From the NCBI GenBank assembly GCA_021803105.1, contig JAJZMC010000007.1, positions 27,794-91,793 on the forward strand: a DNA stretch of 64,000 bases, written 5' to 3'. Below the pieces are notes generated by a model. That model did not search any database. It was not told the DNA's origin and saw only the letters and a list, made by a program, of their open reading frames with translations. Below are positions 26,906-57,087 of the stretch, one piece after another (the stretch's first letter is position 1; each line of letters begins with the position of its first letter). Both the position numbers and the translations under genes were made by a program. Source of the DNA: a bacterium. GTDB taxonomy: Bacteria; Patescibacteriota; Saccharimonadia; Saccharimonadales; UBA4665.

Positions 26906-26987
26906 ATACCGATATTTTACCAGATTTTACTATATTAAAATAATCACTCTTCTTGTATGATATTTTTTTTCAGCTATACTTCAAATA

Positions 26988-31757: not shown

Positions 31758-32216
31758 ATGGATAACAATGAAAAAACTGAACTTCTACTAAAAGCGGAAA
31801 ACTATGACAAATTTAAAGATGAAATCGGCAAAGAATATGTAAATAACATACGCTATTTAAAGACAGATCTCAGTTCATGGTTTAACGCATTAACGGCAGC
31901 TAGTTTTACAGTTGGTGCAATAGCAATCACAATAGGATCCGACAAGACTGTGAATTCTGGCATTTCTCATCCTGACTACTTTTGGTGGGGAACATTTTTA
32001 TTAATATTGGACGGAGTTCTGATATTCCTTCTTAAAAAACACGATATTGAAAACAATCTTAATGAAATGCCTCAATTAACCGAATCAAAAGCAGATTATT
32101 GGGAATTAAGAAACCTTACAATTGAAAAATCTAATGATAATAACATGAATAATAGTCGACTAGAAACTTTAGAAAAAAACGTAATTAGAGATTATGAAGA
32201 ACTTATTAAAAAATAG
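31758..32216 (+). CDS. hypothetical two-TM membrane protein
   Basis: It is 152 aa with two hydrophobic helices (FNALTAASFTVGAIAITIG and WWGTFLLILDGVLIFLL) and a charged C-terminus. A further ~59-codon hydrophobic ORF follows at ~32301-32480. Confidence 0.45.
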   Translation: MDNNEKTELLLKAENYDKFKDEIGKEYVNNIRYLKTDLSSWFNALTAASFTVGAIAITIGSDKTVNSGISHPDYFWWGTFLLILDGVLIFLLKKHDIENNLNEMPQLTESKADYWELRNLTIEKSNDNNMNNSRLETLEKNVIRDYEELIKK

Positions 32217-32558
32217 TCCTGGTATAAATGGATAAAAAAAGACAACCCAAGCGGCTACAACTGATATTGTTTTTGGCTTATTTTTATTCCCAATTATTCT
32301 TATGCTATCTCAAATAATACATAAACTACATATCTCAATGAATTTTTATACGCTAATATTACAGGCATTATTAATTCTCTATATAATTTATACTATCCGT
32401 GGTGGCATTATTGGAGTGAAAGCAATAAAAAAACAACAGGCAACTGAACAAAGAATAAAAAAACTAGTTATTAAAAAATAACAAATAATCTTATAAGTTA
32501 TTAATTAGATATTTAAAAAATTAATCATGATTTTTTGTTTGACAAAATTTTAACTCTT

Positions 32559-32987
32559 TTATTCTTTATCTATAAATTTCACAGTATAATTCTTCCTGGA
32601 ATTAACTTTCACTAAATCGGTCACATTCTTATTTCCATCATCCTCTAACAATAACGTTCTCCCAGACATTGGTTCTTGTGGTTCAATAGCGGTTATCCGT
32701 ATATAGAAGTTATAGCTTGGTAGATTAGTTATTTCTCCTTCTTCTAGGAATGGTTTAAATAAAGGAAGTATTAACTGTTCATCTAATGGACTCCCAGTTC
32801 TAAAGACCACTACTGTTCCAACATTAGCTAGAATTATATTAACCATTCTTTGTTCTTCTTGTTGAGAAGTAGATTGTTCAACCATAATTAGATATAACTT
32901 ATACTTTCTAGCCTCAGATAACATTTGCACAAATGAAGTAGTGGCAAAGTTCTGAAACTCATCAACATAGAGAAAGAAATAAAAATC
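32559..32987 (-). pseudogene. 3' remnant of a second VirD4/TraD-like ATPase gene (starts at the Walker B region)
   Basis: Hand translation from 32987 gives DFYFFLYVDEFQNFATTSFVQMLSEARKYKLYLIMVEQSTSQQEEQRMVNIILANVGTVVVFRTGSP...LLLEDDGN.... This is colinear with PFYLYVDEFQNFATISFVQLLSEARKYKLFLTMAEQSTAQQEEKRLVDIMLANVGTVICFRSGSP...VLLEDNGS of the 864-aa protein. No N-terminal two-thirds is present. Confidence 0.8.
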
Positions 32988-34838: not shown

Positions 34839-35194
34839 TTGTTTTCAAGTTCCGTATATTTTAGGTGATTACCTTTAGCTTTATGGACCGGATATTTAAT
34901 TTCATTTTTAATCATTTTACTGTCTAATGCCTGCCTCAAATCTATGTCTAAGTCATTTGCTATTAATAATACCCAATACAAAACATCAGCCAGCTCATCC
35001 GCAATATCTTTTTTTTTGTTTTTTAAGTGTGCTTCTATCTCTTCATTATTCTTCCACTGAAAATGTTCTAAGAATTCAGTTGATTCTAATACGAGCGAGA
35101 TAGCCATATCTTTAGGATTATGGAATTGTTTCCAATTACGATCGTCTCGAAACTTAATTATTCTTTTAGCTAAATTTTCGAAATTGCTTTTCAT
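34835..35194 (-). CDS. MazG-like nucleoside triphosphate pyrophosphohydrolase (small all-alpha type)
   Basis: It is 119 aa. RDDRNWKQFHNPKDMAISLVLESTEFLEHFQW...ELADVLYWVLLIANDLDIDL matches the EExxE/D-bearing helices of the small MazG/YpjD/DCTPP1-like family. Confidence 0.75.
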   Translation of the reverse strand: MKSNFENLAKRIIKFRDDRNWKQFHNPKDMAISLVLESTEFLEHFQWKNNEEIEAHLKNKKKDIADELADVLYWVLLIANDLDIDLRQALDSKMIKNEIKYPVHKAKGNHLKYTELENK

Positions 35195-35448
35195 TGTTTT
35201 CCCTAAGTTGTATTTTATAAGTTTCCTGTCAATAATTATAATCCAAAATTAATATTTTTAATAAGTCTGGTCATCATTTTATTAAACTGAATTATTATCA
35301 GATAAACAAAAATATGTAACAAAATAGACGAGTATGGACTTATCAGACACACAAAATAAGCTAACTCGTCATCGTGATAACATTAATATATCAAAAAATA
35401 CTTGAAAATCAATAATTATATCAAACGTTACTTGTTTTTATCAACCGC

Positions 35449-38043
35449 TTACTTATTCTTGCTAAATTTACCCTTAGTTCTCTGATTATTTGATTTACGT
35501 TTTTTACTAGCTTGATAGTTTTTAATTGGTATATCACTAACAATTTTCTCTTCCGGCTGAACATATAATTTGGCATAACTATCTCTTGATGTCTCAACAA
35601 CTCTTCCAGCTACTTCTTCACTCCCATTATCTTCAAGTAAGACCGTCTCCCCAGACAAAGGTTCTAAGACACTAACAGCTCTCAGTCTCATATAAAAGCT
35701 ATAAGCTGGCAAGTTAGCTATATCACCTTGATCTAGTTGTGGTTTAAAGATAGGTAGTAATAGTTTTTCATCTTGTGGACTACCTGATCTAAAACAAATA
35801 ACTGTCCCAACGTTAGCTAGCATAATATCAACTAGTCTTTTTTCTTCTTGTTGAGCAGTCGATTGTTCTGCCATAGTAAGAAATAACTTATACTTTCTAG
35901 CTTCACTAAGTAATTGAACGAAACTAATTGTTGCAAAGTTTTGAAATTCATCAACATAAAGATAAAAAGGAGTCCTGCTGTCTTCTCCTAGTCTAGCTCG
36001 TCTAAGGGCAGATAACTGCAACTTAGCTAGAACACTAATACCAAGTAGAGTAGAGGTATCTTCTCCAATATGACCCTTAGCAAAGTTACAGATAAGTATC
36101 TTACTATCCTGAATAATATCATCAAAGTTAATAGTAGATTTAGCTTGTTCTAGTATTCTTCTACTAACAACTGATCTTTGGAATCTACCAAGCTTAGCAT
36201 TAACACCACTACTCATCTTTATTTTCTGGTAATCACCAGCACTATTAAATTCACCAGCCCAGAAGTCTTTTAAATCTTCATCAGTTAGTTTATCTACTAC
36301 TGATCTTCTAAACTTACTATTAGTGAGTAGCTTATAGACAGTAAATAAAGTAGCATCAGGAACAGTAAAAGCTGTATGAATAGTATTTCGAAGGAAATGT
36401 TCAATTCGATGACCACCATGATCATCCTCAGAAAATATTTTTCGAAAAACCGATATAACAGCTTCCGTGATAAAATCTTGTTCTAGTAGTAGTTCATCTT
36501 CACTTAAACCTTTTGGTTGTTCAAGCAAATTAAGTCCAATCGGATGAGCTATATCTCTTGGATTAAAGTAAATAACGTCTTTTATTCTACTCTCTGGAAT
36601 ATACTTTAGGATTGACTCGGCTAGATCACCATGAGGATCAATTACAGCCACACCTTTACCAGCTTTAATATCTGAAATAATTGCTGATTTAATCATAGTT
36701 GTTTTACCGTTACCACTACCACCTAAGATATAGACATGACGCTGTCTTTCTTCTTCTGTTAGTCCAACTAGATTATCATGATCATGGTAGTGATTTATCC
36801 CGTAGATAACATCAAAACTATCACTAGTTGATCTATTTTTAATAGCCAGTGGAACAGGTAAGACCTTAGATAATGATTTAACTACTTCATTACTATTACT
36901 ACCAAGACTTGGGAAGTGATAAATACTAGCTAACTCTTGGCTAGATAATATAGAAGAACTACTAGTTAAAATTGATGGTAATCGTCCACTATAAACATCC
37001 AGTTTATATTTCCAGGCAAAAGACTGACTAGTATTTTTTCTAATTATTATTTCCTGATAACCAGGAACATTAAATAAAGACAGAGCACTACTTAAACCTT
37101 TGATTCTTTGTTTGTAATTATCTCCAATAGCTAGGATTCTAATATCGACATAAAATAAGGGTTGATCTAATTTATCATAGATTGAAGTAATAACGTGTTT
37201 GGTAGTTGATGACAAACTTGGTGTTTTACTTGTTTTTAAGTATTTAGAATCTTTAAATATAAAGTGCAGAATAATATCTACTAATGTCACACTACTTACA
37301 AAAAGTAGTCTAATTAATCTAAATAGCCAGAAACCTTTACGTCGGTTAATACTACCGTCTTTACCAGCAAGTAGTTTTTTTCGGATCTTACTACTAGTCG
37401 AAACATCAACTGGTGAAGTAACTAGTTGCAGAGCAATGATCTCATCATCAGCTGGTGAAACCATTGATCCAGTAATAAAAGATAAGACATCATTAGTCTT
37501 AGTAGCTAGGGGATAAGCGTAGTGAGCTGACTGACAAAACTCAACTATTTGACAGTTAGAACTAGTTAAATCTCTAGGTAGATAATCTGGTATTTCTTTT
37601 ATCTGAATCTCTGGCATAAAAGATTCAAGTAACTGTTTAAACAAGAAAGAGTAGTCCTCATTTAGTCCAGCAATGAATCTAATACCATCACGTTTAGTTG
37701 ATACTAGTTCTAGTGATATAATCTTTCTTCGTCTTAGTAACTTATCTTTTAGCGAAACTTTATTAGTTAGTCCATAAATACTATTAAAAAACTTAGCTAC
37801 TTCATTAGTAGTTTTATTGTTACTATAAGGCGTCGTTAATTCTAAAAATATAACTGAGCCTTTTTTAAGATGAATGTAGTCTAGAGTATCTAATATTTTA
37901 TTAATGATACTAGCTAGTATTAATCTATATAAAATAATAAAAACAATAACAATAAAGGCAAAATTAATAAAAAAAGTCAAAAGAGAAGTACCAAAGATTT
38001 GCTGAAACAGATTGTAATGAATAACTGCTATAACTTCTAGCAT
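35449..38043 (-). CDS. VirD4/TraD(TrwB)-like type IV secretion coupling-protein-like P-loop ATPase
   Basis: It is 864 aa with N-terminal TM helices. Walker A is GGSGNGKTT, followed by AVIDPHGD, and Walker B is YLYVDEFQNF. It is colinear with the 1005-aa protein at 51812-54829. Confidence 0.7.
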   Translation of the reverse strand: MLEVIAVIHYNLFQQIFGTSLLTFFINFAFIVIVFIILYRLILASIINKILDTLDYIHLKKGSVIFLELTTPYSNNKTTNEVAKFFNSIYGLTNKVSLKDKLLRRRKIISLELVSTKRDGIRFIAGLNEDYSFLFKQLLESFMPEIQIKEIPDYLPRDLTSSNCQIVEFCQSAHYAYPLATKTNDVLSFITGSMVSPADDEIIALQLVTSPVDVSTSSKIRKKLLAGKDGSINRRKGFWLFRLIRLLFVSSVTLVDIILHFIFKDSKYLKTSKTPSLSSTTKHVITSIYDKLDQPLFYVDIRILAIGDNYKQRIKGLSSALSLFNVPGYQEIIIRKNTSQSFAWKYKLDVYSGRLPSILTSSSSILSSQELASIYHFPSLGSNSNEVVKSLSKVLPVPLAIKNRSTSDSFDVIYGINHYHDHDNLVGLTEEERQRHVYILGGSGNGKTTMIKSAIISDIKAGKGVAVIDPHGDLAESILKYIPESRIKDVIYFNPRDIAHPIGLNLLEQPKGLSEDELLLEQDFITEAVISVFRKIFSEDDHGGHRIEHFLRNTIHTAFTVPDATLFTVYKLLTNSKFRRSVVDKLTDEDLKDFWAGEFNSAGDYQKIKMSSGVNAKLGRFQRSVVSRRILEQAKSTINFDDIIQDSKILICNFAKGHIGEDTSTLLGISVLAKLQLSALRRARLGEDSRTPFYLYVDEFQNFATISFVQLLSEARKYKLFLTMAEQSTAQQEEKRLVDIMLANVGTVICFRSGSPQDEKLLLPIFKPQLDQGDIANLPAYSFYMRLRAVSVLEPLSGETVLLEDNGSEEVAGRVVETSRDSYAKLYVQPEEKIVSDIPIKNYQASKKRKSNNQRTKGKFSKNK

Positions 38044-38946
38044 GATTCCTCTTATTTCACCACTGTTTGGACGGTATTGTAACTGATTAGATTTATATTA
38101 GCAAATATATTTTAATAATTACTTATTTTTCAGTGTTACGAATGTATAATAATATTAGAAATAAAGTAAAATTATCTTACGAAATAAAATTTAAAGTACA
38201 TGAGCACTAAGCATTCTATCGCAGGAGTTAAAAGATAATGGGGCGCACTAAAGGATCAACGAATAAAGAGCGTCCGGTACCATGGCCTATGAATTTATCT
38301 AGGAAAGATCGGCTGGAGTTAATAGCTAATATTATAGTCGATAAGATCATTGAGATCAGAGAAACGGAGGCCCATTGCTAAAAAAAATTGAAGCTCAACA
38401 AAAAATATCAAAAAAGTCAGATTATAAATAACCATTAAACCATCTGTATAAATTAACATATAGGGTTTCTATTTTCTCACATACCTAAAAGACTCAGGTG
38501 TATATGAAACTTTCAAAGCATTCTAAAGTGCTACAATATACTTATGAATCAAAAAATATCTAAACCTAAACACCTTAGTAAACAGCAGGAAGAGCTTATC
38601 GATCAAATAACAAAAATATCAAAGATCCTGTGCGGTCAGTCAACGCTAAAGGAATGATAAGAGAAGCAATGAGTGGGAATAAAGAGCTAGCGGATATTAT
38701 ACATAGGATGATTGTCTCAGCGCTGAATGAACAAAAACAAACTATTTCGTAAAATTATTTACAGTAGATCAAACTATAGAATCAAAAGATAAACAATAGT
38801 TGTATAAATGTAGTCTAAACAAAGATTATAAGAACCTTTAAATAAATTTAATATTTTATTGATAACATAACAAAATTATAAATTAACGAATACTATACTT
38901 TATAAATAGTACAAATTACCTAAATAATCAAGACTTTTATGGCAAT

Positions 38947-40408
38947 TGTTGCTCGCCAATAGAAATGTCCGGATTTGCGTTCAATAGAAATGTCCAGTTT
39001 TTTGGTATGATCCTATTTAAAAAATAGGAGGATTTAATGCCAGAAATAATAAGGTTATCTCAAAAAGAACTGAACCAAGTTAGTGTCATAAAACAAGTAG
39101 CTGAAGGTAAACTCAAGCAAATAGAAGCAGCTGAAAGTTTAGATATAACAGACAGACAAATAAGAAGGCTACTCAATAAATATAGAGATGAAGGTAATAA
39201 AAGTTTTGCTAATAAATTAAGAGGCAGACCTAGTAATCACCAACTGGATAAGGGTTTTAAAGATAAAGTAATTAAGTTAGTTAAAAACAAATACCCAGAC
39301 TTTGGTCCAACCTTTGCAGCCGAAAAACTTAAGGAATTGGACGGTATTAGTATATCTGTATCTACTTTAAGACGCATAATGGTAAATAATGACGTTTGGA
39401 GAGAAAAAAGGCGTAAGAAACCTATTCACAGAACCAGGAGGCCTAGGCGTTCATGCTACGGAGATATGGAACAATTTGACGGCTCAAGCCATGACTGGTT
39501 TGAGGGTAGATATAACCATGGTGAATATACTACATTACTAGCTAGTATTGACGATGCTACGTCTATAGTTAATGCTTGGTTTAGTGACTATGAAGGGACT
39601 GTGCCTGTCATGAAGTTTTGGTGGGGGTATTTTGAGAAATATGGTAAACCTCACAGTATTTATCTAGATCGTCACAGCACATACAAAGTTAACTCTAAAA
39701 ATGCACTAGATAATGACAGCATCGTATCTGAATTTACTAGAGCCATGAAAGAATTAGGCGTACAGGTTATTAATGCAAATAGTCCTCAGGCTAAAGGTAG
39801 AATAGAAAGATTATTTGGAACCCTGCAAGACAGATTAGTAAAAGAGCTCCGCCTCGCAGGTATTAATAATCCTAATGATGCCAATAAATTTTTGCAAGCT
39901 TATTTACCTAGGTTTAATGCCAGGTTTAACGTTGAGGCTACCAGTAGCACAGATACTCACGTTATGTTATCTAAGCAGTACGATCTTAACTCAATCCTGT
40001 CTGTTCAGTCTGTACGCATTGTTAGTCGTGACTTTGTGGTTAGCTTTAAGAACCATTGGTATCAACTATCTAAAGATCAGCCTACTACAGTTTATCCTAA
40101 TAGTAAGGTAATCATTGAAGAGAGGTTAAATGGTAATTTATTGATACGTCTCAATAGCAAGTATCTAAACTACACTAAGCTAGACATTAAACCACGGAAA
40201 CCTAAAGTACTAGCCCCAGTTTTAGCCCCTAATCCTACTAAAAGACCTTATAAGCCATCAGCTACTCATCCGTGGAGAAGTATTAGGTTATTACCCTACA
40301 ATATTAGTAATAGACCGAATCAAACACCACCATCAAAGAAAATTACTTAAAAACGAATCCGGACATTTCTAAAAGTTTAAATCCGGACATTTCTACTGAA
40401 TTTCAACA
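38947..40408 (+). mobile_element. insertion sequence (rve/DDE transposase, TGT termini; IS481-like or ISNCY-like), copy 1
   Basis: The imperfect terminal inverted repeats both start with TGTTG. Each end carries two copies of the subterminal motif (A/T)AGAAATGTCC(G/A)G. These sit at 38959-38975 and 38984-38998 on the left, with the mirrored copies at 40357-40372 and 40381-40396. It has a single transposase ORF. No target-site duplication is visible. Confidence 0.8.
39037..40350 (+). CDS. IS transposase (N-terminal HTH + integrase-core DDE domain)
   Basis: It is 437 aa and preceded by AGGAGG. The HTH reads ITDRQIRRLLNKYR. Catalytic-core-like segments are MEQFDGSSHDW, IYLDRHSTYK and ANSPQAKGRIERLFGTLQDRLVKELR. 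By eye it is about 65-70% identical to the ORF at 45312-46637. Confidence 0.9.
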   Translation: MPEIIRLSQKELNQVSVIKQVAEGKLKQIEAAESLDITDRQIRRLLNKYRDEGNKSFANKLRGRPSNHQLDKGFKDKVIKLVKNKYPDFGPTFAAEKLKELDGISISVSTLRRIMVNNDVWREKRRKKPIHRTRRPRRSCYGDMEQFDGSSHDWFEGRYNHGEYTTLLASIDDATSIVNAWFSDYEGTVPVMKFWWGYFEKYGKPHSIYLDRHSTYKVNSKNALDNDSIVSEFTRAMKELGVQVINANSPQAKGRIERLFGTLQDRLVKELRLAGINNPNDANKFLQAYLPRFNARFNVEATSSTDTHVMLSKQYDLNSILSVQSVRIVSRDFVVSFKNHWYQLSKDQPTTVYPNSKVIIEERLNGNLLIRLNSKYLNYTKLDIKPRKPKVLAPVLAPNPTKRPYKPSATHPWRSIRLLPYNISNRPNQTPPSKKIT

Positions 40409-40494
40409 GGTTAGGGGTTATATTTAGGGGTTATATTTATTCTAATTAATTGAATTATCCCAAAAAGTAAGTTATTATTTAATAATATTTTTGC

Positions 40495-40571
40495 GGGCGG
40501 TTAGCTCATTTGGCTAGAGCGCTTCCTTGACGTGGAAGAGGTGACAGGTTCGAATCCTGTATCGCCCACCA
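40495..40571 (+). tRNA. tRNA-Val (anticodon GAC), CCA encoded
   Basis: Hand-folded cloverleaf. The acceptor pairs GGGCGGT with ATCGCCC. The D arm is GCTC/GAGC. The anticodon stem is CTTCC/GGAAG with loop TTGACGT. The T arm is ACAGG-TTCGAAT-CCTGT. It ends in ACCA. A possible promoter is TTGAAT (40450), 17 nt, then TATTAT (40473). Confidence 0.92.
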
Positions 40572-40830
40572 AAGATGTTATTTAATATTTTACGACGTAA
40601 TACTTTTAAGTTTAAATAGGATAAATTATATAGCTTATTTGAATATTGTTTATAATGATAGGTTAATTATTGTATATTTAAGATAATTATGCCTTTTATG
40701 ATATAATTAGCTTTGGAGTTATCCACATTAGTAAATGTAACAATTACAGCATAAATATGCTAGCCATATATTACTAACCGTGTTAATATTAATTTGAGGC
40801 GAGGTTTTGACGAGAATGTTTTCTCTTAAA

Positions 40831-45249: not shown

Positions 45250-46727
45250 TGTCACCGCAAAGTTAAAATGTCCGCTTTTCTGCACAATAGAAATGTCCGC
45301 TTTTAGTTTATTTAAGTTATTTTTTTAGATAATGGTTTATGTTTAGGATTACTAGAAATATTATATGGAAGTAGAGTGAATTTACGCCATGGATGATTAG
45401 AACTTGGTGTAGTGTAGGTTCGTGGTTTTTTTAGGTTAGGATTACTTGTTAAGGCAATTGGTGGTTTTTCAGTTATAACAGGTTTAGTAGTTAACTTAAC
45501 ATAGGTTAAGTAATAGTTACTTAGTCTTATATAAATTGTATTATCTAATCGTTCTTCGATTGTTACTTGAGCTTTTGGTAATACTAATGTTGGTTGTACT
45601 TTTGTTAGTTGTAGCCACTGATTCTTAAAACGGATAGTGAAATCTTCATTGATGTATCGTTTTGTTTGAACTGATAAAATAGCTATTAAATTGTCCCTGG
45701 TAGTGACTGGACGATGAATGTCAATATCAGATCGTGGAGTTACAGAAAATCGAATATTAAAAGCTGGTAGAAATTTATCCTGGAGAAATATATTGGCTTC
45801 TTTTACATCATTAATATTAGCTAATCTTAACTCTTTAACTAAACGATCTTGTAAGGTACCAAATAGATTCTCTATTCTTCCTTTAGCCTGAGGGCTATTG
45901 GCATGAATAACTTCAACATTAACCTCTTTCATAGCTCGTTCAAATTGAGTAATCATAGCATCGTCATCAAGAGCATTTTTATCATTAACTTTATAGGTAC
46001 TATGACGATCTAAATAGATAGTGATTGGTTTACCATAAATCTTAAAGTAATCTCGCCAGAAGATCATAACTGGTTTAGTTCCTTCATAGTCTAAGAACCT
46101 AGCATAAATAATATTATTAGCATCATCTCTACTAGCCAGTAGTGTTGCCCAGGCTCTATTAGGTAATCTACCTTCAAACCAATCATGATGACATCCATCA
46201 AATTGTTCCATGTCTCCATAACAAGCTCTCCGTTCTCGACGCATACGATGAATTGGTTTACGTTTTTTATGTTGCCAGATACCTTCTTTAATCATTAGAT
46301 TACGGAGTGTTTCATGGTTAATATTAAGGTTATCTCTTTCAGCTAATTTCTCAGCAGCAAAAGTTGGCCCAAAATCTGGATATTTGGTTTTAACCAATTC
46401 AATTACTTGGTCTTTAATTGTTTGTGATAAACGATTATGACTAGGATTACCTCTTGCTTTATGAGCTAGTCTAGCGGTACCTTCAGCTCTGTATTTAACT
46501 AACATACGTCGGACTTGACGATCAGTTAAACCTAGACTTAAAGCGGCATCTTTTTGAGTTATTGTTTTATTAATAATTCGTTGCAACATGGTTGCTCGAT
46601 TAAGTTCTTTGGAACTTATTGTATGTATATGGTTCACTTAGATTGTCCTATCTTTTAGTTGTTTCTGTAACTAAGGATAGGACATTTTAACTTTGCGCAA
46701 ACCGGACATTTTAACTTTGCTTTCACA
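45250..46727 (-). mobile_element. insertion sequence, copy 2 (same type as copy 1, diverged), flanked by a perfect 16-bp direct repeat
   Basis: The ends are TGTCACCGCAAAGTTAAAATGTCCG... (45250->) and the reverse complement TGTGAAAGCAAAGTTAAAATGTCCGG... (46727<-). Each end has two AAATGTCC subterminal motifs. TAAAAAACTGATGTGG occurs at 45234-45249 and again at 46728-46743. Confidence 0.88.
45312..46637 (-). CDS. IS transposase (HTH + integrase-core DDE domain)
   Basis: It is 441 aa and colinear with the 437-aa transposase (MEQFDGCHHDW, IYLDRHSTYK, ANSPQAKGRIENLFGTLQDRLVKELR). Confidence 0.9.
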   Translation of the reverse strand: MNHIHTISSKELNRATMLQRIINKTITQKDAALSLGLTDRQVRRMLVKYRAEGTARLAHKARGNPSHNRLSQTIKDQVIELVKTKYPDFGPTFAAEKLAERDNLNINHETLRNLMIKEGIWQHKKRKPIHRMRRERRACYGDMEQFDGCHHDWFEGRLPNRAWATLLASRDDANNIIYARFLDYEGTKPVMIFWRDYFKIYGKPITIYLDRHSTYKVNDKNALDDDAMITQFERAMKEVNVEVIHANSPQAKGRIENLFGTLQDRLVKELRLANINDVKEANIFLQDKFLPAFNIRFSVTPRSDIDIHRPVTTRDNLIAILSVQTKRYINEDFTIRFKNQWLQLTKVQPTLVLPKAQVTIEERLDNTIYIRLSNYYLTYVKLTTKPVITEKPPIALTSNPNLKKPRTYTTPSSNHPWRKFTLLPYNISSNPKHKPLSKKIT

Positions 46728-48707: not shown

Positions 48708-49064
48708 GCCAGATTATTGACCGATCGCGTACTTTTAAATACGAGGAAAGTCCGGGCAGCAAAGAGAGTGATAGTCGTTAACGACGACCAGATGTGAATC
48801 TAGGGAAAGTGCCACAGAGACAATACTATCGTTATTTTGACGGTAAAGGTGAAAAGAGCGGTGTAAAAGACCGTAGTTTATATTGGTGACATTATAAAGA
48901 GGTAAACCCTATCAGCTGCAAGGAGATAAGTTTTAAGTTTTTACTTTAGTTTCTCGCTAAACTTATCGATTTATCCGCTTGAATTTATGAGTAATTATAA
49001 ATCTAGATAGATGATCGGTAATCTTATTTTAAGATTACAGAACCCGGCTTATAGATAATCTGGC
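48708..49064 (+). ncRNA. rnpB: RNase P RNA (bacterial type A)
   Basis: The universally conserved P4 strands GAGGAAAGTCCGGGC (~48744) and ACAGAACCCGGCTTA (~49038) are present. The terminal P1 pairs GCCAGATTAT (48708-48717) with ATAATCTGGC (49055-49064). AGGGAAAGTGCCACAGA is also conserved. Confidence 0.92.
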
Positions 49065-49069
49065 TATTA

Positions 49070-49651: not shown

Positions 49652-50188
49652 TTATTTTTCAATTTGTTCAATAGGTTTAATGTTACTAGCTCTAATAACG
49701 AAGTTCAATTGCTTACCAGTTAGTTGTGGTTGTTGATCAATAATTATTTTATCAGACAATATAGTAATTATTTTATTTGCTAGCTGGAAACCGATGTCTT
49801 TATGAGCTTGTTCTCTACCTTTATATACTAAAGTGATTTTAACTTTATGACCGATATTTAAAAACTTTTCAACTTTTTTAAGTTTTATCATTAGATCATT
49901 ATCACTAATTTTTAAGCCGAGCCTCATTTGTTTTATATCTAGTGTTTTTGTATTTTTACGATTTTTTTGTTGAGTTTTTGTTTTTTGATAATTAAACTTA
50001 CCCCAATTAATAATTTTAGCAACTGGTGGTTTAGCATCCGGAGAAATCTCAACTAAATCTAGCTCTTTTTGCCTTGCAATGTTAAGTGCTTCTTCTTTAG
50101 AAAGGATTCCTAATTGATGACCATCTTCATCTATTACTCGCAACTGAGATGCTCGAATTTCTTGATTCAAGCGGTTGTATTTAGCTAT
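49652..50188 (-). CDS. infC: translation initiation factor IF-3, probably starting at a non-canonical ATA codon
   Basis: NQEIRASQLRVIDEDGHQLGI...ELDLVEISPDAKPPVAKIINWGKFNYQ is the IF-3 pattern. The track start is TTG at 50170, which has no RBS. An in-frame ATA at 50188-50186 lies 8 nt after GGAG, with an in-frame TAA just upstream. Use of a rare start codon is a known infC feature (AUU in E. coli). Confidence 0.9.
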   Translation of the reverse strand: MAKYNRLNQEIRASQLRVIDEDGHQLGILSKEEALNIARQKELDLVEISPDAKPPVAKIINWGKFNYQKTKTQQKNRKNTKTLDIKQMRLGLKISDNDLMIKLKKVEKFLNIGHKVKITLVYKGREQAHKDIGFQLANKIITILSDKIIIDQQPQLTGKQLNFVIRASNIKPIEQIEK

Positions 50189-50524
50189 TTCAAGGTCTCC
50201 TTAATAATTATCTTTCAGATAACATTTTAACAGGTTAACTTTAATTTTACAACAGGGTTTTTAGTTTTTAGTTTAATAATTAAAATCAAAATTATTTTGA
50301 TAACTTAGATAGTTTTGTCTGAAGCTTTTATTTAAAAATGTCCTGATTTTATTATCAGGACATTTTAAGTTTTAAGTTTGATGGTTTATTTTAGTTTCTT
50401 TTTAGTTTTTCTTCTTGGAACAACGGCTTGCGAGAAGCCGTTGTTTTAACTGTCTTTTTGTTTTTGAGTACTTAATTTATTCAAGTACTATCTTCATCTT
50501 ATAAAATACTAAAAAGGTCGTCAA
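50189..50524 (-). promoter_or_regulatory. infC-rpmI-rplT promoter plus a ~300-nt hairpin-rich leader (candidate L20-type attenuator)
   Basis: On the minus strand: TTGACG (50524-50519), 17 nt, then TAAGAT (50501-50496). Three hairpins follow. The first is AGTACTT/AAGTACT (50467-50489). The second is an 11-bp stem, AACAACGGCTT/AAGCCGTTGTT (50419-50445). The third is a perfect 13-bp stem, AAAATGTCCTGAT/ATCAGGACATTTT (50335-50366), followed on the minus strand by TTTTTAAAT, which makes it terminator-like. Confidence 0.4.
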
Positions 50525-50764
50525 TAACAATTATGGTTATTTTATAAAAAAGCTGTGCATAACTCATGTATATTTTTTTACTATCTTGTTTTTTTACTGC
50601 AATGTTTTAGATATTTTAACAATAAAATAAATATATACAGACCATAAGGATGATACTCAATTACAAAGTACTTTATAGATAATAGTAATATTATTATGCT
50701 AGTTATATTTTTTTATTTTTGAGGTTGTTATTTATGATTAATAGTGCGATAGTATCAGTCAGTC

Positions 50765-50793
50765 TTGACTATTTTAAGGTTAGGTGCTATATT
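50765..50793 (+). promoter_or_regulatory. near-consensus sigma70-type promoter for the 51009-54829 operon
   Basis: TTGACT (50765-50770), an exactly 17-nt spacer, then TATATT (50788-50793). It lies about 215 nt upstream of the first start codon. Confidence 0.5.
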
Positions 50794-50914
50794 AGAAAAG
50801 TAAGTTCAAAAACAAAAATATTAATTTAAAAAAACTTACTCTATGCATAATTTGTGATATGCAAATGTCGCTCTGAGGATGCCTTACAGTATTTTTAGAG
50901 CGGTCAGTCAGTCG

Positions 50915-50974
50915 AGGACGATAAGCGCTGTTTATTTTATATTTTGAGCGGATTTATCGTCCCGATTTTATTTT
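50915..50974 (+). terminator. terminator-like hairpin inside the 5' leader of the 51009 operon (possible attenuator or riboswitch expression platform)
   Basis: GGACGATAA (50915-50923) pairs with TTATCGTCC (50953-50961), extended by CGCT/AGCG. CGATTTTATTTT follows. An upstream CGCTCT...AGAGCG helix (50868-50901) shares sequence with the terminator arms, which allows alternative pairing. Confidence 0.4.
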
Positions 50975-51008
50975 AAGTTAGGATATCGGTTATACTTCAA
51001 AGTGGATT

Positions 51009-51398
51009 ATGTTTGAGGTTAAAAAATATATAAAAAAATATCGTTTAATTAAGTTTCTGTTATTAGTAATATCAGAAATTATTTTTTTTAGTACCATTAA
51101 TCCATATAGTAGTCAAACAATCGTATTAGTGATTGGCGTAGCATTTGTTGTAGTGGATTATTATTTGCTTGTTAATTATATTGTGAGCTATTTAGCTAAA
51201 ATTTATAAAGTTATTTTTAATCAAAAAAAGAGAATAGTTTTATTTTTAACCGTAATAGGGAGTTTATTTATCATTTTAAAATCGTTGGGACAGTTGAGTA
51301 TTAATGATGTTTTAGTAATTATTTTATTATCAATAATAGGGTACAGTTATAGTTGGTATGCCTCTGATCAAAAAAAGAGAATAAAAAAGAATTTTTAA
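51009..51398 (+). CDS. small polytopic membrane protein (4 predicted TM helices)
   Basis: It is 129 aa, almost entirely hydrophobic, with a basic C-terminus (QKKRIKKNF). It is the first gene of the operon. Confidence 0.6.
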   Translation: MFEVKKYIKKYRLIKFLLLVISEIIFFSTINPYSSQTIVLVIGVAFVVVDYYLLVNYIVSYLAKIYKVIFNQKKRIVLFLTVIGSLFIILKSLGQLSINDVLVIILLSIIGYSYSWYASDQKKRIKKNF

Positions 51399-51428
51399 CT
51401 ATAGTTTTTTAAAGATATAATTATATTT

Positions 51429-51809
51429 ATGGATAATCAGCAAATACTTAAAGATGATCTAACGTTACCAACACCTCAAAGTAACGATATGATGGTTGAT
51501 GATAATAATACTTCTTCTCCAACAAAAGTTGTTAACTCAGCATCAGAGCAAGATAATAGTTCACAAGTTAATAGATCTAATTCTAATGACGTAATTTCTG
51601 ATAGTCCTATTTCTGTTAATCAAGATCAATCTATTGTTAACCAAATTTCAATAGAAGATAATGATTTAATAGACAAAGAATGGATTAATAGAGTAAAAAA
51701 TATTATTGAAGCTACTAGAGGTAATCCTTATAAACAATCGCAAGAAATAAATGCTTTAAAGGCAGAATTTATACTAAAGAAGTATAATAAAGTTATTAAG
51801 GTAGAATAA
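51429..51809 (+). CDS. hypothetical protein (polar low-complexity N-terminal half, helical C-terminal half)
   Basis: It is 126 aa. Its stop lies 2 nt before the ATPase start, which implies co-translation. Confidence 0.5.
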   Translation: MDNQQILKDDLTLPTPQSNDMMVDDNNTSSPTKVVNSASEQDNSSQVNRSNSNDVISDSPISVNQDQSIVNQISIEDNDLIDKEWINRVKNIIEATRGNPYKQSQEINALKAEFILKKYNKVIKVE

Positions 51810-51811
51810 TT

Positions 51812-54800
51812 ATGCAAGTAGCTATGTATGTTATTGGTGTTTTGCTAGTGATAGTGGTTATAGCTGGTTTTATAATATTTTTACAATCAAGAAAAATATT
51901 TAGAGAACAAAAAAATCTTGAAAGAGGTCTTAAGACTATTTCATTATATATTCATTTACCACCTCCGAGTGATGATATAGAGGTTAATGGTAGAGATATA
52001 AGAGACGTAACTCAAGAAACTATTTCTAAGGCTGAAATAATTTATAGTATATTGGCAAGTACCGTAAAAAAGGGTTTCAAAACAAATTATTACGGTCAAC
52101 GCCATTTTTCTTTTGAAATTGTTGGAACTAAAGGATATGTTTATTTTTATGCCAGTGTCCCAATCTCACTAATCGAGGTGGTAAAGCAAGCAATAAGTAG
52201 TGCTTATCCGACGGCTCGCTTGGAAGAAATTTCTGACCATAACATATTTAGTCAGATAGGTAAGTCTACCGGTACTTTAGGTGGTGAACTTGAACTTAAG
52301 GAATCTTTTGCTTTCCCAATAGCAACTTATCAGGAACTTAAACGTGATTCAATGTCATCTTTACTTAATGCTTTATCAACTTTAAATAAAGAAGATGGTG
52401 CTTCTATTCAGTTTTTAATTCGTCCAGCTAATAGTTCTTGGACAAAAACTGCTCATAGTTTATCTAGTAAAAAAAGAAAGGGAACTGATAAAAAAACTGG
52501 TTTTACTGATTATTTAAAATTAATAATACTAGCTTTTTCTAAATCACCAACAGAACAAAAAAATAATGCTGATGATAAACCTAATCTATCTAGCCTAGAT
52601 CAATCGATAGTTGATGCTATTGATGATAAAACTAAAAATCCAGGGTTTGAAACTTTAATTAGGATAGTGGTATCAAGTAATGTTTCTCAACGATCACAGG
52701 AGATATTGAACAATATAATAGCTACTTTTTCGCTATATAATGCTCCATCAAAGAATGGTTTTAAGTATTTACCGGCCAATGATATTGAAACTTTGATTAC
52801 TAGTTATATTTTGAGACTATTTCCTCAAGCTAAAAATAAAATGATTTTAAATTCAGTTGAGCTGGCAACCTTATTTCATTTTCCTGATCAAAGAAGTATT
52901 CCTACTTCACAATTAACAAGACAAACTTCACGACAAGTAGATGGACCACCGAATGTACCGGACAATGGTTTATTGCTTGGCTATAATGAGTTTAGAGGAG
53001 TTAAAAAACCCATCAGATTAGAACTTTCAGATAGACAGAGACATCTGTATGCTGTTGGACAAACTGGTGTTGGTAAATCTACTTTTTTAGAAAATTTAGC
53101 TTTGCAGGATATGATTAACGGAGATGGTTTCGCTTTTGTTGATCCTCATGGTGATACAGTAGAAAAATTATTAGCAATGACACCAGCTGAACGAGCTGAG
53201 GATATTATTTACTTTTCTCCGGCTGATATGGACTATCCTATGGGTTTGAATTTGTTTGAGTACAGTAATCCTGATCAAAAAGATTTTTTGATTCAAGAAG
53301 CCTTAAATATGCTTTATAAGCTATATGATCCTAATCACACTGGAATTATGGGACCTCGTTATGAAAATTTATTTAGAATGGCTGCTTTAACTATTATGGC
53401 TGATCCTGCTGGTGGTACTTTTGTTGATATACCTAAACTTTTTAGAGATCCTAAATTCGTTGAACAAAAACTTCAATACGTAACTGACACTAATGTACTT
53501 GATTTTTGGCGAAAAGAAATGCCAGCTTCTCAGAGGTCGAATGATTTTGGTGAAGTTGTTGCTTGGTTTGTTAGTAAATTCGGTGCATTTTTAAGTAATG
53601 ATATGATGCGAAATATTATTGGACAAACCAAGAGTTCTTTTAATATGCGTGAGATTATGGATAATAAAAAGATTTTATTAGTTAATTTAAGCAAAGGTCG
53701 TTTAGGGGATTTAAATTCAAAGTTACTTGGTATGATTTTTGTTATGAAGTTTCAGGTAGCTGCTATGAGTAGGACAGATATCCCAGAAAAAGAAAGAACA
53801 GATTTTTGTTTATTTGTTGATGAGTTTCAAAATTTTTCTACGGATAGTTTTGCTACTATTATGTCTGAAGCTAGAAAATTTCATTTAAATTTGATCGTAG
53901 CCAATCAGTTTACAACACAGTTAACAGAAGAAATTAGGGATGCAGTTTTCGGTAATATTGGAACGATTGTAGCTTTTAGAATCGGTCAGAACGACGTTGA
54001 AATACTTACAAGATATTTTCAGCCAATATTTAATGGAGATGATCTATTAAGGATACCAAATTATAATACAATAGTTAGGACACTTATTAATGGTGTTCCT
54101 ACTCAACCCTTTAGTATGGCTGCTTTACCGACTTTAGGTACACCCAATGAACGCTTAGCAGAGGCGTTAAAACAATTATCTGCAATAAAATACGGTAGAG
54201 TACGTAATATTGTTGAAAAAGAGATTGTAAAGAGAATGAGCGTGTCACAACCACCTGTTATGTCATCAACTAGACAGACTATAGGTAATGATTTTTCTGA
54301 TATTGCTAAACAATGGGGTCAAAATAGTGGGTTATCTGATAATCAATTACAACAACAGTTATCTGGTAATAATGAACCTGTTTCACCACCAGCTATCGGT
54401 CAAGTAAAATCATCATTTATAGATGATTGGTTAGCTAAGAGGAAAAAGTCCATGTTAAATTCTAATACTAACCCAATGGTTAATAGTGTTACTCCGATGT
54501 CATCACCATTTGATTTAGAAGATAAAAATATGATGGATATGAATTTTAATAAATCACAAGATATACCACAAACGAATCATACTAATCAGGAAAATGAGTT
54601 TAAGATTAAAAGAGATAATAATTTGACTTCTACTCAAAATATTTCTAGTGATGAATTACAAAAAGTTGAAATTGATCAAATAGCTTCAGTTTTAAAGGAA
54701 GATTTAAATATTAATAAAAATGATACATCTGTTGATAATGTATCAACAAACGTAGATAGCGAGATAAAAGATGATAACAGTGAGATTAGCATAGACCAGA

Positions 54801-54829
54801 ATGGTAATTTAGTGGTTAAGGATAAATAA
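51812..54829 (+). CDS. VirD4/TraD(TrwB)-like coupling-protein-like P-loop ATPase with a long polar C-terminal extension
   Basis: It is 1005 aa with one N-terminal TM helix. Walker A is GQTGVGKST, followed by AFVDPHGD, and Walker B is CLFVDEFQNF, followed by MSEARKFHLNLIVANQ and GNIGTIVAFRIG. The last ~230 aa are N/Q/S/D-rich. Confidence 0.72.
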   Translation: MQVAMYVIGVLLVIVVIAGFIIFLQSRKIFREQKNLERGLKTISLYIHLPPPSDDIEVNGRDIRDVTQETISKAEIIYSILASTVKKGFKTNYYGQRHFSFEIVGTKGYVYFYASVPISLIEVVKQAISSAYPTARLEEISDHNIFSQIGKSTGTLGGELELKESFAFPIATYQELKRDSMSSLLNALSTLNKEDGASIQFLIRPANSSWTKTAHSLSSKKRKGTDKKTGFTDYLKLIILAFSKSPTEQKNNADDKPNLSSLDQSIVDAIDDKTKNPGFETLIRIVVSSNVSQRSQEILNNIIATFSLYNAPSKNGFKYLPANDIETLITSYILRLFPQAKNKMILNSVELATLFHFPDQRSIPTSQLTRQTSRQVDGPPNVPDNGLLLGYNEFRGVKKPIRLELSDRQRHLYAVGQTGVGKSTFLENLALQDMINGDGFAFVDPHGDTVEKLLAMTPAERAEDIIYFSPADMDYPMGLNLFEYSNPDQKDFLIQEALNMLYKLYDPNHTGIMGPRYENLFRMAALTIMADPAGGTFVDIPKLFRDPKFVEQKLQYVTDTNVLDFWRKEMPASQRSNDFGEVVAWFVSKFGAFLSNDMMRNIIGQTKSSFNMREIMDNKKILLVNLSKGRLGDLNSKLLGMIFVMKFQVAAMSRTDIPEKERTDFCLFVDEFQNFSTDSFATIMSEARKFHLNLIVANQFTTQLTEEIRDAVFGNIGTIVAFRIGQNDVEILTRYFQPIFNGDDLLRIPNYNTIVRTLINGVPTQPFSMAALPTLGTPNERLAEALKQLSAIKYGRVRNIVEKEIVKRMSVSQPPVMSSTRQTIGNDFSDIAKQWGQNSGLSDNQLQQQLSGNNEPVSPPAIGQVKSSFIDDWLAKRKKSMLNSNTNPMVNSVTPMSSPFDLEDKNMMDMNFNKSQDIPQTNHTNQENEFKIKRDNNLTSTQNISSDELQKVEIDQIASVLKEDLNINKNDTSVDNVSTNVDSEIKDDNSEISIDQNGNLVVKDK

Positions 54830-54832
54830 TAG

Positions 54833-55411
54833 TTAAATTTTTTTGAATAATCTAATTATTAGTTCAATTAGTAGTCCAAGAATAAAACCACCTATAAAGA
54901 AAATGAAAAACCAAATAAAATTGTATGTGATACCAACATACTTTACAAATATTAGATAACTTAAACTACCAATAAATGCTAAGATTGCTCCTCCTAGTAC
55001 ACCGGATGGTCTAGCTATTGTTGTGCTTGTTTTATCACTGACCTGATCTATTATTGGTTGATGTATGATTTTACTAAGATTTCTATCAACTATTGGTAAA
55101 CGGTGTCTGATATTATTAAATATTTGTTTAGTTGATATATTAACTAGGTTTTGATCTACATAACGATTTTCTTGTAGTTTTTCTTGTTTAAAAGCATCGA
55201 GTTCATTCTCATTATTGTTAGTTTCTTCTTTAATAATTTCACGAGTTTCTTCTAGCTTTTCATTTTCTAGATTAGTTTCGTTAGATAGATTAGCAGTTTC
55301 ATTTTCTAGCGCATGTGTTTTTTCTATTTGTTCAGAGGTTGGTAAAAGTAATTCTTTTTCTCCTTCTGGTAATTTAAGTTCTTCTGGTATATTTAATTGT
55401 TCTGCTGACAT
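54833..55411 (-). CDS. hypothetical protein: acidic coiled-coil N-terminus with two C-terminal TM helices
   Basis: It is 192 aa with an E/N/L-rich N-terminal half. The C-terminus reads GGAILAFIGSLSYLIFV...FIWFFIFFIGGFILGLLIELII. It is convergent with the ATPase gene, with only 3 nt between the stops. Confidence 0.5.
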   Translation of the reverse strand: MSAEQLNIPEELKLPEGEKELLLPTSEQIEKTHALENETANLSNETNLENEKLEETREIIKEETNNNENELDAFKQEKLQENRYVDQNLVNISTKQIFNNIRHRLPIVDRNLSKIIHQPIIDQVSDKTSTTIARPSGVLGGAILAFIGSLSYLIFVKYVGITYNFIWFFIFFIGGFILGLLIELIIRLFKKI

Positions 55412-55428
55412 TTTATTATTTCTCTTTT

Positions 55429-57087
55429 TTAGATTATGTTATTTTGAAGCGCTAAGTCAGATTCTTTGGCGAGTAATCTAGATCGAGCAAAGAAGTAACC
55501 GATAACTGTTACTATTAATGCGGCAATGAAGATATCGTTTCCTGGACCAGTATTAACAAGTGTTGTTGAAGTTGTGGTCGTCTCAATTGTTTTAATAATT
55601 GTAGCAGGTAAATGTATGATTATAGTGTTACCGTATACATTAGTCATTTCGAGGTTGTAATAGCCTGGATCTGAAGATGAAGTAGGAGTTTGAGGAATTG
55701 GGCTCATCACTTTAACGGCTACTTTTTCGGTTGCTGTGGAGTTAGGAGCAATATTAATAGCTGGCCATGTTATTTGATTAGAACTATTAATTGTTCCACC
55801 GTATTTATTTACGATCGTTGAGTAATCAAGAACATCACTTAGATTATCACTAAAAACGTAGTTTTTAATTGGTGCTAGACCGGTGTTATCAGCATAAAGA
55901 GTATAAATAATTTCATTATTAGGTTGAGCAGTTGTTCCATTAGCATTAGCGATGTTTTGAGTAATATTAGCAGCGGTTTTATATACTTTAATACAAGCTA
56001 TACTGTCTTGACTATTAATACTGGCTTGGCAGGGCTTACAATTAGGACTTGAAGCGGTTAAGCTAGCATTATACTTACAGGTTGGCGGTGTAGGTGGTGG
56101 TGAATAAGGTGTAGTCGGTGGTTGACTTGGTGTGGCAACTGTCATACAAACTTGGTTACTGTTTAGAGGTGTTGTTTCGTTAGAGCTTATAGTTGCTATA
56201 TTACAGATTTGAGTACCAGGAGTGACGTTAGGGTTAATTTTAACTCTTAGGTCTATATAATAATTAGTGGCTCCAGCGGGTAAAGTGTTATATACCCATT
56301 GTGCTTGATTAGTTTGAAAATTATTTGGTACAACATTAGCTCCTCCAGTTCCAAACCAAGTGTATGTTGTATTATTTGGTAATGGATCAGATATAACTAC
56401 GTTTTTAGCTTCACCACCAGTATTCGAAAAAATTAAACGATAGGATAAAGTTTCGTTTGGACTAACAATACTACCATTAACTGGAAAGCCTGGAGAGGTG
56501 GTTTTACTGATTGTTAAATTTGGTGCTTGAGGTAAACCAATCGATACTAAGTTACCACAAGTGTAGAGTAAAAAGTATGTTGTGCCATTAGAGGCTGTTA
56601 ATTTAATTGCTTGATAATTTGATGAACCAGCTGTATCCCAGGCCCATAAATATCTAAAATAATAAATGGTTCCAGCTACAATAACAGGTGTTTCTCCGGT
56701 TAGATTATAAGGTAATCTTCCCATTGAAAATAGTTGCTTATTGTATGAGTCAGAGTTAAGAGTTATCGTTGAACCTGAGGCTATATCTTGACAGGTAATG
56801 TTATAGTTAGCCAGAATTGTACCGTAATTTTCAATGTTATTGTTACAAAGATTAACAGCTTGTGAGATAGAAGAAAAGCCTCCATTTATTAAATCATTTG
56901 GTGAAGCTGCTATTGTTGGTTGAGGAGGACTTATAAAGGCAAAGAATTGAACAAAAAAAGCTAATATAATAAAAATAAAACTAATTCGTCTAATACTGGA
57001 CTCTTGTCTCATTCGTTTACTGTAAAATGATATCTGACTGGTGATGTTTGGATTATATGGTAGTAGTGATAGTAATTTTTTTAACAT
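55429..57087 (-). CDS. secreted or cell-surface protein with DUF11-type repeats, a Pro-rich/Cys-rich linker and an LVNTG + TM + basic C-terminal sorting-like signal
   Basis: An N-terminal signal-anchor is present (ISFIFIILAFFVQFFAFI). Two segments resemble the conserved repeat domain (LSYRLIFSNTGGEAKNVVISDPLPNNTTY and IIYTLYADNTGLAPIKNYVFSDNLSD). The linker reads PSQPPTTPYSPPPTPPTC. The C-terminus reads TTLVNTGPGNDIFIAALIVTVIGYFFARSR. Confidence 0.65.
   Translation of the reverse strand: MLKKLLSLLPYNPNITSQISFYSKRMRQESSIRRISFIFIILAFFVQFFAFISPPQPTIAASPNDLINGGFSSISQAVNLCNNNIENYGTILANYNITCQDIASGSTITLNSDSYNKQLFSMGRLPYNLTGETPVIVAGTIYYFRYLWAWDTAGSSNYQAIKLTASNGTTYFLLYTCGNLVSIGLPQAPNLTISKTTSPGFPVNGSIVSPNETLSYRLIFSNTGGEAKNVVISDPLPNNTTYTWFGTGGANVVPNNFQTNQAQWVYNTLPAGATNYYIDLRVKINPNVTPGTQICNIATISSNETTPLNSNQVCMTVATPSQPPTTPYSPPPTPPTCKYNASLTASSPNCKPCQASINSQDSIACIKVYKTAANITQNIANANGTTAQPNNEIIYTLYADNTGLAPIKNYVFSDNLSDVLDYSTIVNKYGGTINSSNQITWPAINIAPNSTATEKVAVKVMSPIPQTPTSSSDPGYYNLEMTNVYGNTIIIHLPATIIKTIETTTTSTTLVNTGPGNDIFIAALIVTVIGYFFARSRLLAKESDLALQNNII

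Follow-up and report, generated by a model that had tools for sequence, protein, structure and literature searches.

What does a coupling-protein-like ATPase do when it is encoded apart from any type IV secretion system (T4SS)? The question is raised by a stretch of 64,000 nucleotides (nt) of a Saccharimonadales genome (Patescibacteriota, Saccharimonadia, UBA4665; assembly GCA_021803105.1, contig JAJZMC010000007.1, positions 27,794 to 91,793 of the forward strand). The whole stretch is called the window below, and its own numbering is used throughout. Three genes on the + strand are one operon, whose last gene encodes an ATPase with a motor of the VirD4/TrwB type. This operon is part of the conserved core of Saccharibacteria, and probably of that of Patescibacteria generally. 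Much of bacterial diversity belongs to Patescibacteria, whose life with hosts is largely unknown. The operon is a concrete candidate for the motor that is missing from their essential T4SS, or alternatively for a new translocase that stands alone.

The operon, its ATPase and their relatives

The first gene of the operon (51009-51398, +) encodes a 129-amino acid (aa) protein with four hydrophobic segments in the transmembrane (TM) scan. The second (51429-51809, +) encodes a 126-aa soluble protein with no TM segment. The third (51812-54829, +) encodes the 1005-aa ATPase, which has one TM segment at residues 6-24. All genes are taken from the list of open reading frames (ORFs); the gaps within the operon are 30 and 2 nt. 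A first-pass annotation made from the sequence alone had described five genes (the operon and two convergent neighbours), a promoter and a structured leader, together with an N/Q/S-rich tail of the ATPase, an LVNTG signal in one neighbour, and a paralogue plus a remnant of the ATPase gene; all of these were found at their places and as described. It had also held that the ATPase lies outside any conjugation cluster. This is true of the window and of about 160 related loci. No VirB4, VirB6, relaxase or pilin was found among the window ORFs that were scanned with Pfam, a scan that covered the window except several ORFs at about 13-24 kb.

Gene order was surveyed by scanning one genome per species (418 relatives); the best 80 loci were analysed by iterated hidden Markov model searches. 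Both small genes are located upstream of the ATPase gene, on the same strand and in the same order, in 76/76 loci with enough flank. The first-pass annotation had named loss of gene order in relatives as evidence against its reading; the order of the three genes proved to be conserved. The surroundings are conserved as well. IF3 is found near the operon in 50/50 Saccharimonadia loci. In 39 of 50 relatives, ComM (Mg-chelatase-like) separates IF3 from the operon; it is missing in the window genome. gyrB lies within 5 kb in 47/50 loci; in 22 it is directly behind the ATPase gene on the same strand (gaps mostly 60-190 nt). The shared backbone thus reads IF3 / (ComM) / operon / gyrBA. In the window, the segment at 40.9-57 kb carries ThrRS, MiaA, a beta-lactamase-fold protein, an M50 protease, an RNase H fusion, RNase P RNA and L20/L35/IF3. 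Because this segment is collinear with other Saccharimonadia, the operon belongs to the chromosomal backbone and not to the integrated island, which is a separate stretch.

Southlakia epibionticum ML1, the only relative amenable to genetic work, carries the same gene block, for which transposon sequencing (Tn-seq) calls are published (PMC10633639, Tables S1 and S2; ES, essential; GD, growth defect; NE, non-essential). The calls are GD/ES/ES for SEML1_0135-0137 (L20, L35, IF3) and NE for SEML1_0138 (ComM). SEML1_0140 (354 bp) is NE/GD/GD, i.e. a growth defect. SEML1_0141 (420 bp) is GD/ES/ES, with 0 insertions recovered, and is essential. SEML1_0142 (3060 bp, "TraM recognition domain-containing protein") is ES/ES/ES, with 11 of 114 input insertions recovered. 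SEML1_0143 (582 bp) and SEML1_0144 (DUF11) are NE. SEML1_0145-0146 (gyrB, gyrA) are ES/ES/ES and GD/ES/ES. SEML1_0141, SEML1_0142 and SEML1_0144 are not mentioned in the main text of that study, which lists the essential "TraM recognition domain" ATPase without comment.

The approximate layout of the ATPase is: TM segment, residues 6-24; DUF8128 alpha/beta domain, about 40-380; P-loop motor, apparently with a helical insertion, about 385-810; disordered tail, 811-1005. The tail is rich in N, Q, S and D and carries short conserved motifs (N+Q+S 34%, vs 18% in the remainder). Alignments with TrwB locate GQTGVGKS as the Walker A region and LFVDEFQ as the Walker B region. In an alignment of 50 sequences, the N-terminal domain is conserved to the same degree as the motor.

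The motor is T4CP-like (T4CP: type IV coupling protein), judging from sequence and structure comparison, and the ATPase is filed here as T4CP-like rather than as a canonical T4CP. Its resemblance to VirD4 had been noticed in the first-pass annotation and is borne out by four kinds of comparison. In sequence searches of the PDB (phmmer and profile), TrwB (E 1.2e-6 to 1.8e-6) and DotL are the sole meaningful matches. In hhalign, the ATPase matches TrwB with 95% probability (44% identity across 59 columns, in the Walker A region) and the VirB4 protein TrwK with 4%. The best NCBIfam matches are TraD models. In Foldseek, about 440 columns of the predicted structure align with TrwB without its first 70 residues (TM-score 0.60-0.63); further matches are Cag-beta, DotL and HerA. 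The structure was predicted with AlphaFold2 (AF2) from an alignment in which core and paralogue families were combined (pLDDT 82, pTM 0.61); it replaced a model built with 50 close homologues, which was unusable (pLDDT 49). A run of helices is modelled at residues 489-603, between Walker A and Walker B.

Pfam PF26449 (DUF8128) has a precomputed match on the window ATPase itself and on all 120 listed homologues; the local Pfam scan of the ATPase gave no match to PF26449, and its sole match was AAA_22 (25 bits, cut-off 27). More than 5,800 proteins were retrieved as homologues. Identity is 61-81% for the best 120, each of which contains DUF8128; the nearest are annotated as Saccharimonadales or Saccharibacteria. 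Identity across Saccharimonadia is 61-83%. Sequences identical to the ATPase and to its paralogue are found in public assemblies (paralogue: GCA_027426635.1). Plasmid-borne relatives are at most 38% identical, and 216 of 267 are on plasmids typed as non-mobilizable; the context of the nearest plasmid matches (Sulfitobacter, Rhodococcus) was uninformative. Proteins P0244-P0254 of the representative library are 50-56% identical across ATPase residues 1-815. Their total length is 1,400-2,000 aa, and the tail of the core ATPase is considered highly expandable because of these C-terminal extensions.

A profile search of a library clustered at 50% identity matched 22,258 clusters at E <= 1e-3, of which 6,124 reach E <= 1e-30. 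Among the matches is a large group of proteins, about 780-860 aa long and 35-41% identical over their full length, that are much nearer to the core ATPase than to the paralogue. Eighty metagenome loci were fetched with the alignment of this group and fall into two classes. Class 1 is of Saccharimonadia type: long ATPases, both small genes, and the surface-protein pair and/or gyrB. Class 2 has ATPases of about 780-860 aa; in those of its loci that were scanned with Pfam, housekeeping genes lie around the ATPase gene (ribonucleotide reductase, cobalamin adenosyltransferase, AspRS, pyruvate kinase, NUDIX). Sequence distance and context suggest that the class 2 loci are from other Patescibacteria and that their ATPases are likely orthologues. 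A small upstream ORF is tightly coupled to the ATPase gene in 37 class 2 loci. These ORFs are heterogeneous: the DLIEKxW...DPY motif seen in the 126-aa family occurs in one of them (locus L093), and an hhalign comparison of that family with the class 2 upstream ORFs was negative.

The two partner families have no recognised relatives. The 129-aa family has a conserved motif, LQSIGQLxxRD, and its Pfam and PDB searches returned nothing. In the 126-aa family, the N-terminal half is variable and of low complexity; the C-terminal 50 aa or so are conserved (consensus DLIEKEWVxKAKxIVxxTRxDPYxQSxEL...KADYMKKRYNKxIK). Pfam scans of each member and PDB profile searches gave no credible relative. When searched for homologues, the 126-aa protein matched nothing but itself; its orthologues were gathered from the ATPase loci instead.

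Promoter and leader RNA

The operon promoter (50765-50793, +) is of sigma-70 type, TTGACT-17-TATATT with an upstream TG, and is the top-ranked one in the region. As a class, promoter-like sites are at chance there (46 found vs 48.4 expected). The operon promoter is taken as real because the same site is conserved in position across related loci: TTGACA-17-TGnTAnnnT is found at the matching place in most of the 43 Saccharimonadia loci aligned. Two blocks of the intergenic region 50171-51008, A and B, have a nucleotide identity of 74-84% between genomes that share about 63% identity in their proteins. Block B is the operon promoter followed by the leader RNA.

The leader RNA (50800-51008, +) has a conserved 110-nt core at 50866-50975. 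The core consists of a helix (CGCUCU/AGAGCG), an invariant GGUCAGUC and a long imperfect hairpin closed by GCC/GGC. A conserved element, GUAAGU..CAAAAACAAAAA, is located at the 5′ end of the leader and is separated from the core by a variable region. The folding z-score is -4.6. In a MAFFT alignment of 35 species, pairing covers 95.5% of the cells, and compensatory changes are seen in 14 of 24 pairs; 0/500 shuffles match the observed values, and slid controls are 32-49% paired. RNAalifold independently gave 11 compensatory pairs out of 21. G-U pairs assign the leader to the + strand. The covariance model matches 77/82 Saccharimonadia sources, once per source and always on the + strand; all positions compared are upstream of the first small gene. 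It also matches seven metagenome loci, all of Saccharimonadia type, and none of the class 2 loci. Rfam 15 gave no match over 50150-51050, either at E <= 1 or at gathering score, and identification as signal recognition particle RNA, 6S RNA or another known RNA was rejected.

The leader is a candidate new cis-regulatory RNA. In the window, its last hairpin is followed by a U-rich sequence, which is not so in every species. The leader may act by attenuation or by a translational mechanism. To our knowledge, very few regulatory RNAs are known in Patescibacteria.

Block A (about 50400-50565) is noncoding and 74-84% identical in 70 genomes. It contains a minus-strand promoter, TTGACG-17-TAAGAT, at 50524-50496, whose hexamers are invariant in the 70 genomes, and a hairpin whose loop, UUCUCGCAA on the minus strand, is invariant. 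Upstream of this promoter, at 50554-50562, is a DnaA-box-like TTATGCACA (TTATRCACA), likewise invariant. CAAAAACAAAAA is found near the 5′ end of both divergent leaders, in block A on the transcribed strand. Block A appears to be a divergent promoter with two leader hairpins directed toward the ComM / infC-rpmI-rplT side, and might be an autoregulatory leader of L20 or IF3 type. A replication origin at TTATGCACA was considered and dropped: the box stands alone, and the window has no box cluster. A reading as divergent promoter and leader of the infC operon suits the block better. On the far side of this operon, bacterial class A RNase P RNA (48709-49067, +; 247.6 bits) is located between the RNase H fusion gene and rplT.

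Candidate roles of the operon

Tentatively, and with real competition from other readings, the ATPase is proposed to be the unlinked coupling motor of the essential Patescibacterial T4SS, acting in trans. The T4SS of Southlakia is an unusual one; its cluster (SEML1_0006-0019, with VirB4 as SEML1_0008) is essential and is stated to be without recognisable coupling and relaxase proteins (PMC10633639). The link is drawn by parsimony, because there is on one side an essential T4SS without coupling protein and on the other an essential coupling-type ATPase without T4SS.

The proposed mechanism is as follows. The conserved sigma-70-type promoter would start transcription through the leader RNA, which would probably set expression. 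The motor would be a VirD4/TrwB-type P-loop ATPase, hexameric by analogy with TrwB. Its N-terminal helix would anchor it in the membrane, with DUF8128 as a lineage-specific cytoplasmic domain and the tail predicted to be disordered. The 4-TM 129-aa protein would supply the remaining membrane part, and the small helical 126-aa protein may be an adaptor or a regulator. The three proteins would form one membrane-bound translocation complex, serving as substrate receptor and motor, i.e. as coupling protein, for the chromosomal T4SS encoded elsewhere. The TM-plus-DUF8128 module could be the part that docks to the T4SS, because the island paralogue has the same N-terminus.

Features shared with the T4CPs VirD4, TrwB, TraD and DotL are a P-loop motor of the FtsK/HerA/VirD4 superfamily with an N-terminal membrane anchor, and a long C-terminal tail, comparable to the adaptor-binding tails of TraD and DotL. 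The modelled run of helices between Walker A and Walker B may correspond to the all-alpha domain that T4CPs have there. Like many T4CPs (PMC12102498), the ATPase is encoded apart from virB4. Unlike T4CPs borne by plasmids or integrative and conjugative elements, it belongs to the essential core of the chromosome; no relaxase or T4SS gene lies beside its gene, which comes with two dedicated small partner genes and an RNA leader. The Legionella complex of DotL with DotM, DotN, IcmS/W and others offers an analogy only: it follows the design proposed here, a coupling ATPase joined to a small membrane partner and to small adaptors near its tail, but the partners have no sequence relationship and no detectable structural one. 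VirB4 (TrwK) likewise joins an N-terminal alpha/beta domain to a RecA-like motor at the C-terminus, but Saccharibacteria have a separate bona fide VirB4 (SEML1_0008), and neither the profile similarity nor the position next to VirB3 in a T4SS cluster that marks VirB4 proteins is found for the ATPase.

Several findings weigh against a T4SS role. The ATPase has a single TM segment and an alpha/beta N-terminal domain of about 350 aa (DUF8128) where canonical T4CPs have a two-helix anchor. It is below every curated T4CP threshold (Pfam TrwB_AAD_bind, T4SS-DNA_transf and TraG-D_C; NCBIfam TraD); the TraD model TIGR03743 scores 39.5 bits, against a cut-off of 366. The best Foldseek E-values (6e-14) are to full-length VirB4 (TrwK), with a TM-score of about 0.3 and a root-mean-square deviation of about 15 Å; going by the model, the N-terminal domain may have a different ancestry. 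T4SS genes are adjacent in none of the approximately 160 loci examined, the neighbours of class 2 being housekeeping genes, and phmmer with TrwK gave no match over the 80 metagenome loci. In a published survey, 5,713 VirD4-type homologues were found in 2,918 of 3,035 Patescibacteria genomes, only 148 of them near virB4, and VirB4 was found in 2,417 of the 3,035 (PMC12102498). Because the former count exceeds the latter, many genomes may keep such an ATPase without a T4SS. In addition, the window genes are assigned as orthologues of SEML1_0140-0144 by synteny, on the basis of order, orientation, length, annotation and flanking genes.

The main rival is a self-contained translocase, formed by the three operon proteins, that is independent of the T4SS and moves DNA, protein or another polymer across the membrane or along it: an exapted motor with a housekeeping role, perhaps in DNA handling. 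It is considered possible, though rather unlikely. The lack of adjacent T4SS genes and the housekeeping neighbours in every lineage sampled fit such a role, as do the dedicated membrane partner gene present in all 76 loci and the spread of T4CP homologues beyond that of VirB4. Exaptation of T4CPs has been suggested earlier, with citation of a non-essential copy (PMC12102498). The proximity of gyrB also fits, but Saccharimonadia gene order is generally conserved, so this adjacency may mean nothing, and gyrBA is not adjacent in the window. SEML1_0142 is ES already at T0, like primase, RpoD and gyrB, and most T4SS genes are GD at T0; this split is undiagnostic, however, since it also separates ribosomal proteins and DnaA from primase. 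Against an independent translocase, no channel-forming component is identifiable, the small proteins being without recognisable relatives, and chromosome segregation and DNA uptake are already covered in Southlakia by canonical FtsK and ComEC. A more specific form of this rival is still less probable: a minimal, Patescibacteria-specific and T4SS-independent machine made of the ATPase, the 4-TM partner and the adaptor, essential to the epibiotic cell and switched by a riboswitch-like leader. If true, it would be a new kind of secretion or uptake system derived from an exapted conjugation motor.

The first-pass annotation had tied the ATPase to the neighbouring surface-protein genes, as a possible host-contact system in which it would export or assemble the DUF11 protein, the 192-aa protein and the giant Kelch fibre. 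The 192-aa protein gene (54833-55411, -) is convergent with the ATPase gene, the stop codons being 3 nt apart; its product has an acidic helical N-terminal half and two C-terminal TM segments. The next gene (55429-57087, -) encodes a 552-aa DUF11-repeat surface protein (DUF11/DUF7619/DUF7927). This protein has an N-terminal signal or TM segment, matches to DUF11 and to isopeptide domains, and a C-terminus made of LVNTGPG, a TM segment and a basic stretch, i.e. a sortase-type sorting signal. Among 43 orthologues, the motif is LPNTGPG in most, followed by the TM segment and YFxRxRLLAxES. Both genes are variable neighbours: the pair is found in 43 of the 66 Saccharimonadia loci with enough flank, always together. 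In 22 of the 23 loci that lack it, gyrB-gyrA is directly behind the ATPase gene.

A surface-assembly role is very unlikely. It agrees with the constant pairing beside the operon and with the true sortase-type nature of the DUF11 protein, whose family is marked as core and Patescibacteria-enriched in Southlakia (PMC10633639). The ATPase, however, stays where the pair is absent, both in the 23 loci and in the likely orthologous loci of class 2, and the pair genes are non-essential where the ATPase is essential. The pair is convergent with the operon and not co-transcribed with it. Export by Sec plus sortase is expected for a protein with an N-terminal signal-like segment and a sortase signal. 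The giant Kelch-repeat ORF (start about 57798, +; more than 2067 aa inside the window, whose end it exceeds) does lie beyond an AT-rich spacer, as first described, but it is divergent from the DUF11 gene. The spacer of 700 bp and the giant gene occupy the place of gyrB-gyrA in relatives, and the giant gene adjoins the operon in this genome only. The proposed functional tie to the pair and the giant gene is thus weak and not supported. The convergent pair is a variable cassette between the operon and gyrB-gyrA and is not counted as part of the machine.

An ordinary conjugative TraD/VirD4, as a leftover or member of a mobile element, would fit the weak TraD-model matches and the paralogue in an integrated element of the window, but it is hardly credible and is already contradicted by synteny and essentiality: the gene has the same backbone position in about 80 species at 61-83% identity, its Southlakia counterpart is essential, its plasmid relatives are 38% identical at most, and no recombinase, relaxase or T4SS gene was found nearby. 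A functional FtsK/SpoIIIE for chromosome segregation at division is just as improbable, although gyrase genes are adjacent in most relatives and the P-loop domain of SEML1_0142 is on FtsK's ECOD template e2iutB2 in the structure-based annotation of Wang et al.: the sequence and fold matches are TrwB, DotL and VirB4, there is no FtsK_SpoIIIE Pfam match, and the ATPase does not have the motor with alpha and gamma domains and the 4TM N-terminus of FtsK proteins. Replacement of FtsK by the ATPase was rejected, as Southlakia has a canonical essential FtsK, SEML1_0096 (4TM, alpha, motor, gamma; PMC10633639).

The claim that either export or transfer by such an ATPase would be new was overstated: unlinked T4CP homologues of Patescibacteria and their exaptation (PMC12102498), the DUF8128 domain and the Tn-seq calls are already on record. 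In the literature as searched, the following are undescribed: the separation of an essential core subfamily from the accessory T4CP; the two partner genes that invariably go with this subfamily, and its promoter and leader; the likely orthologues in a housekeeping context outside Saccharimonadia; and the surface genes as bystanders. For the T4SS-coupling reading as for its rivals, SEML1_0140 to SEML1_0142 and the leader are a defined set of parts that can be tested genetically.

The integrated island and other features of the window

As the first-pass annotation had reported, the ATPase family recurs in an island; this island is bounded by tRNA genes and spans about 24769-40568 (24.8-40.5 kb). 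The paralogue (864 aa; 35449-38043, -) is 28% identical to the ATPase over 776 aa (E 6e-72). It has the same architecture of TM segment, DUF8128 (a weak precomputed match) and motor, and reaches the Pfam thresholds of TrwB_AAD_bind, T4SS-DNA_transf and TraG-D_C. A remnant of a further copy (32556-32978, -; C-terminal part, detected by tblastn) is 61% identical to residues 693-833 of the paralogue. Unlike the core ATPase, this accessory DUF8128-type T4CP is located in an island and has neither the upstream partner genes nor the leader. SEML1_0293 appears to be its Southlakia counterpart, with the same Pfam domains; this second T4CP-like gene (TrwB_AAD_bind, TraG-D_C, DUF87) is non-essential (PMC10633639).

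The island also encodes a serine recombinase (24915-26417), a weak Replic_Relax-like protein (27445-28272), an NgoPII-type restriction-modification pair (29572-31474), MazG and a Schlafen-type helicase (32988-35194), a helix-turn-helix protein and a transposase-like gene with HTH_32/HTH_29 (39037-40350, +). It looks like an integrative mobilizable element. The paralogue beside the serine recombinase and the weak Replic_Relax-like gene would be in the setting expected for coupling of a mobile element to a resident T4SS. A second HTH_32/HTH_29 transposase-like gene, related to that at 39037-40350, is found at 45312-46637 (-), where it splits the conserved backbone between the genes of the beta-lactamase-fold protein and the M50 protease.

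The cumulative GC skew has its minimum at about 38000-40000, where the sign turns from negative to positive. A perfect TTATCCACA is located at 40719-40727, and no DnaA-box cluster was found. A replication origin may lie near 38000-40000.

The segments at 837-3447 (-) and 14203-20080 (-) hold genes for cytochrome oxidase subunits I and III (COX1, E 5e-143), for an FAD-linked oxidase and for a pyridine-nucleotide oxidoreductase and, beside them, the gene of ATP synthase subunit a (19283-20080). It is unusual for Patescibacteria to have respiratory components. The ORF lengths suggest that 14203-18040 encodes the rest of an F-type ATP synthase.

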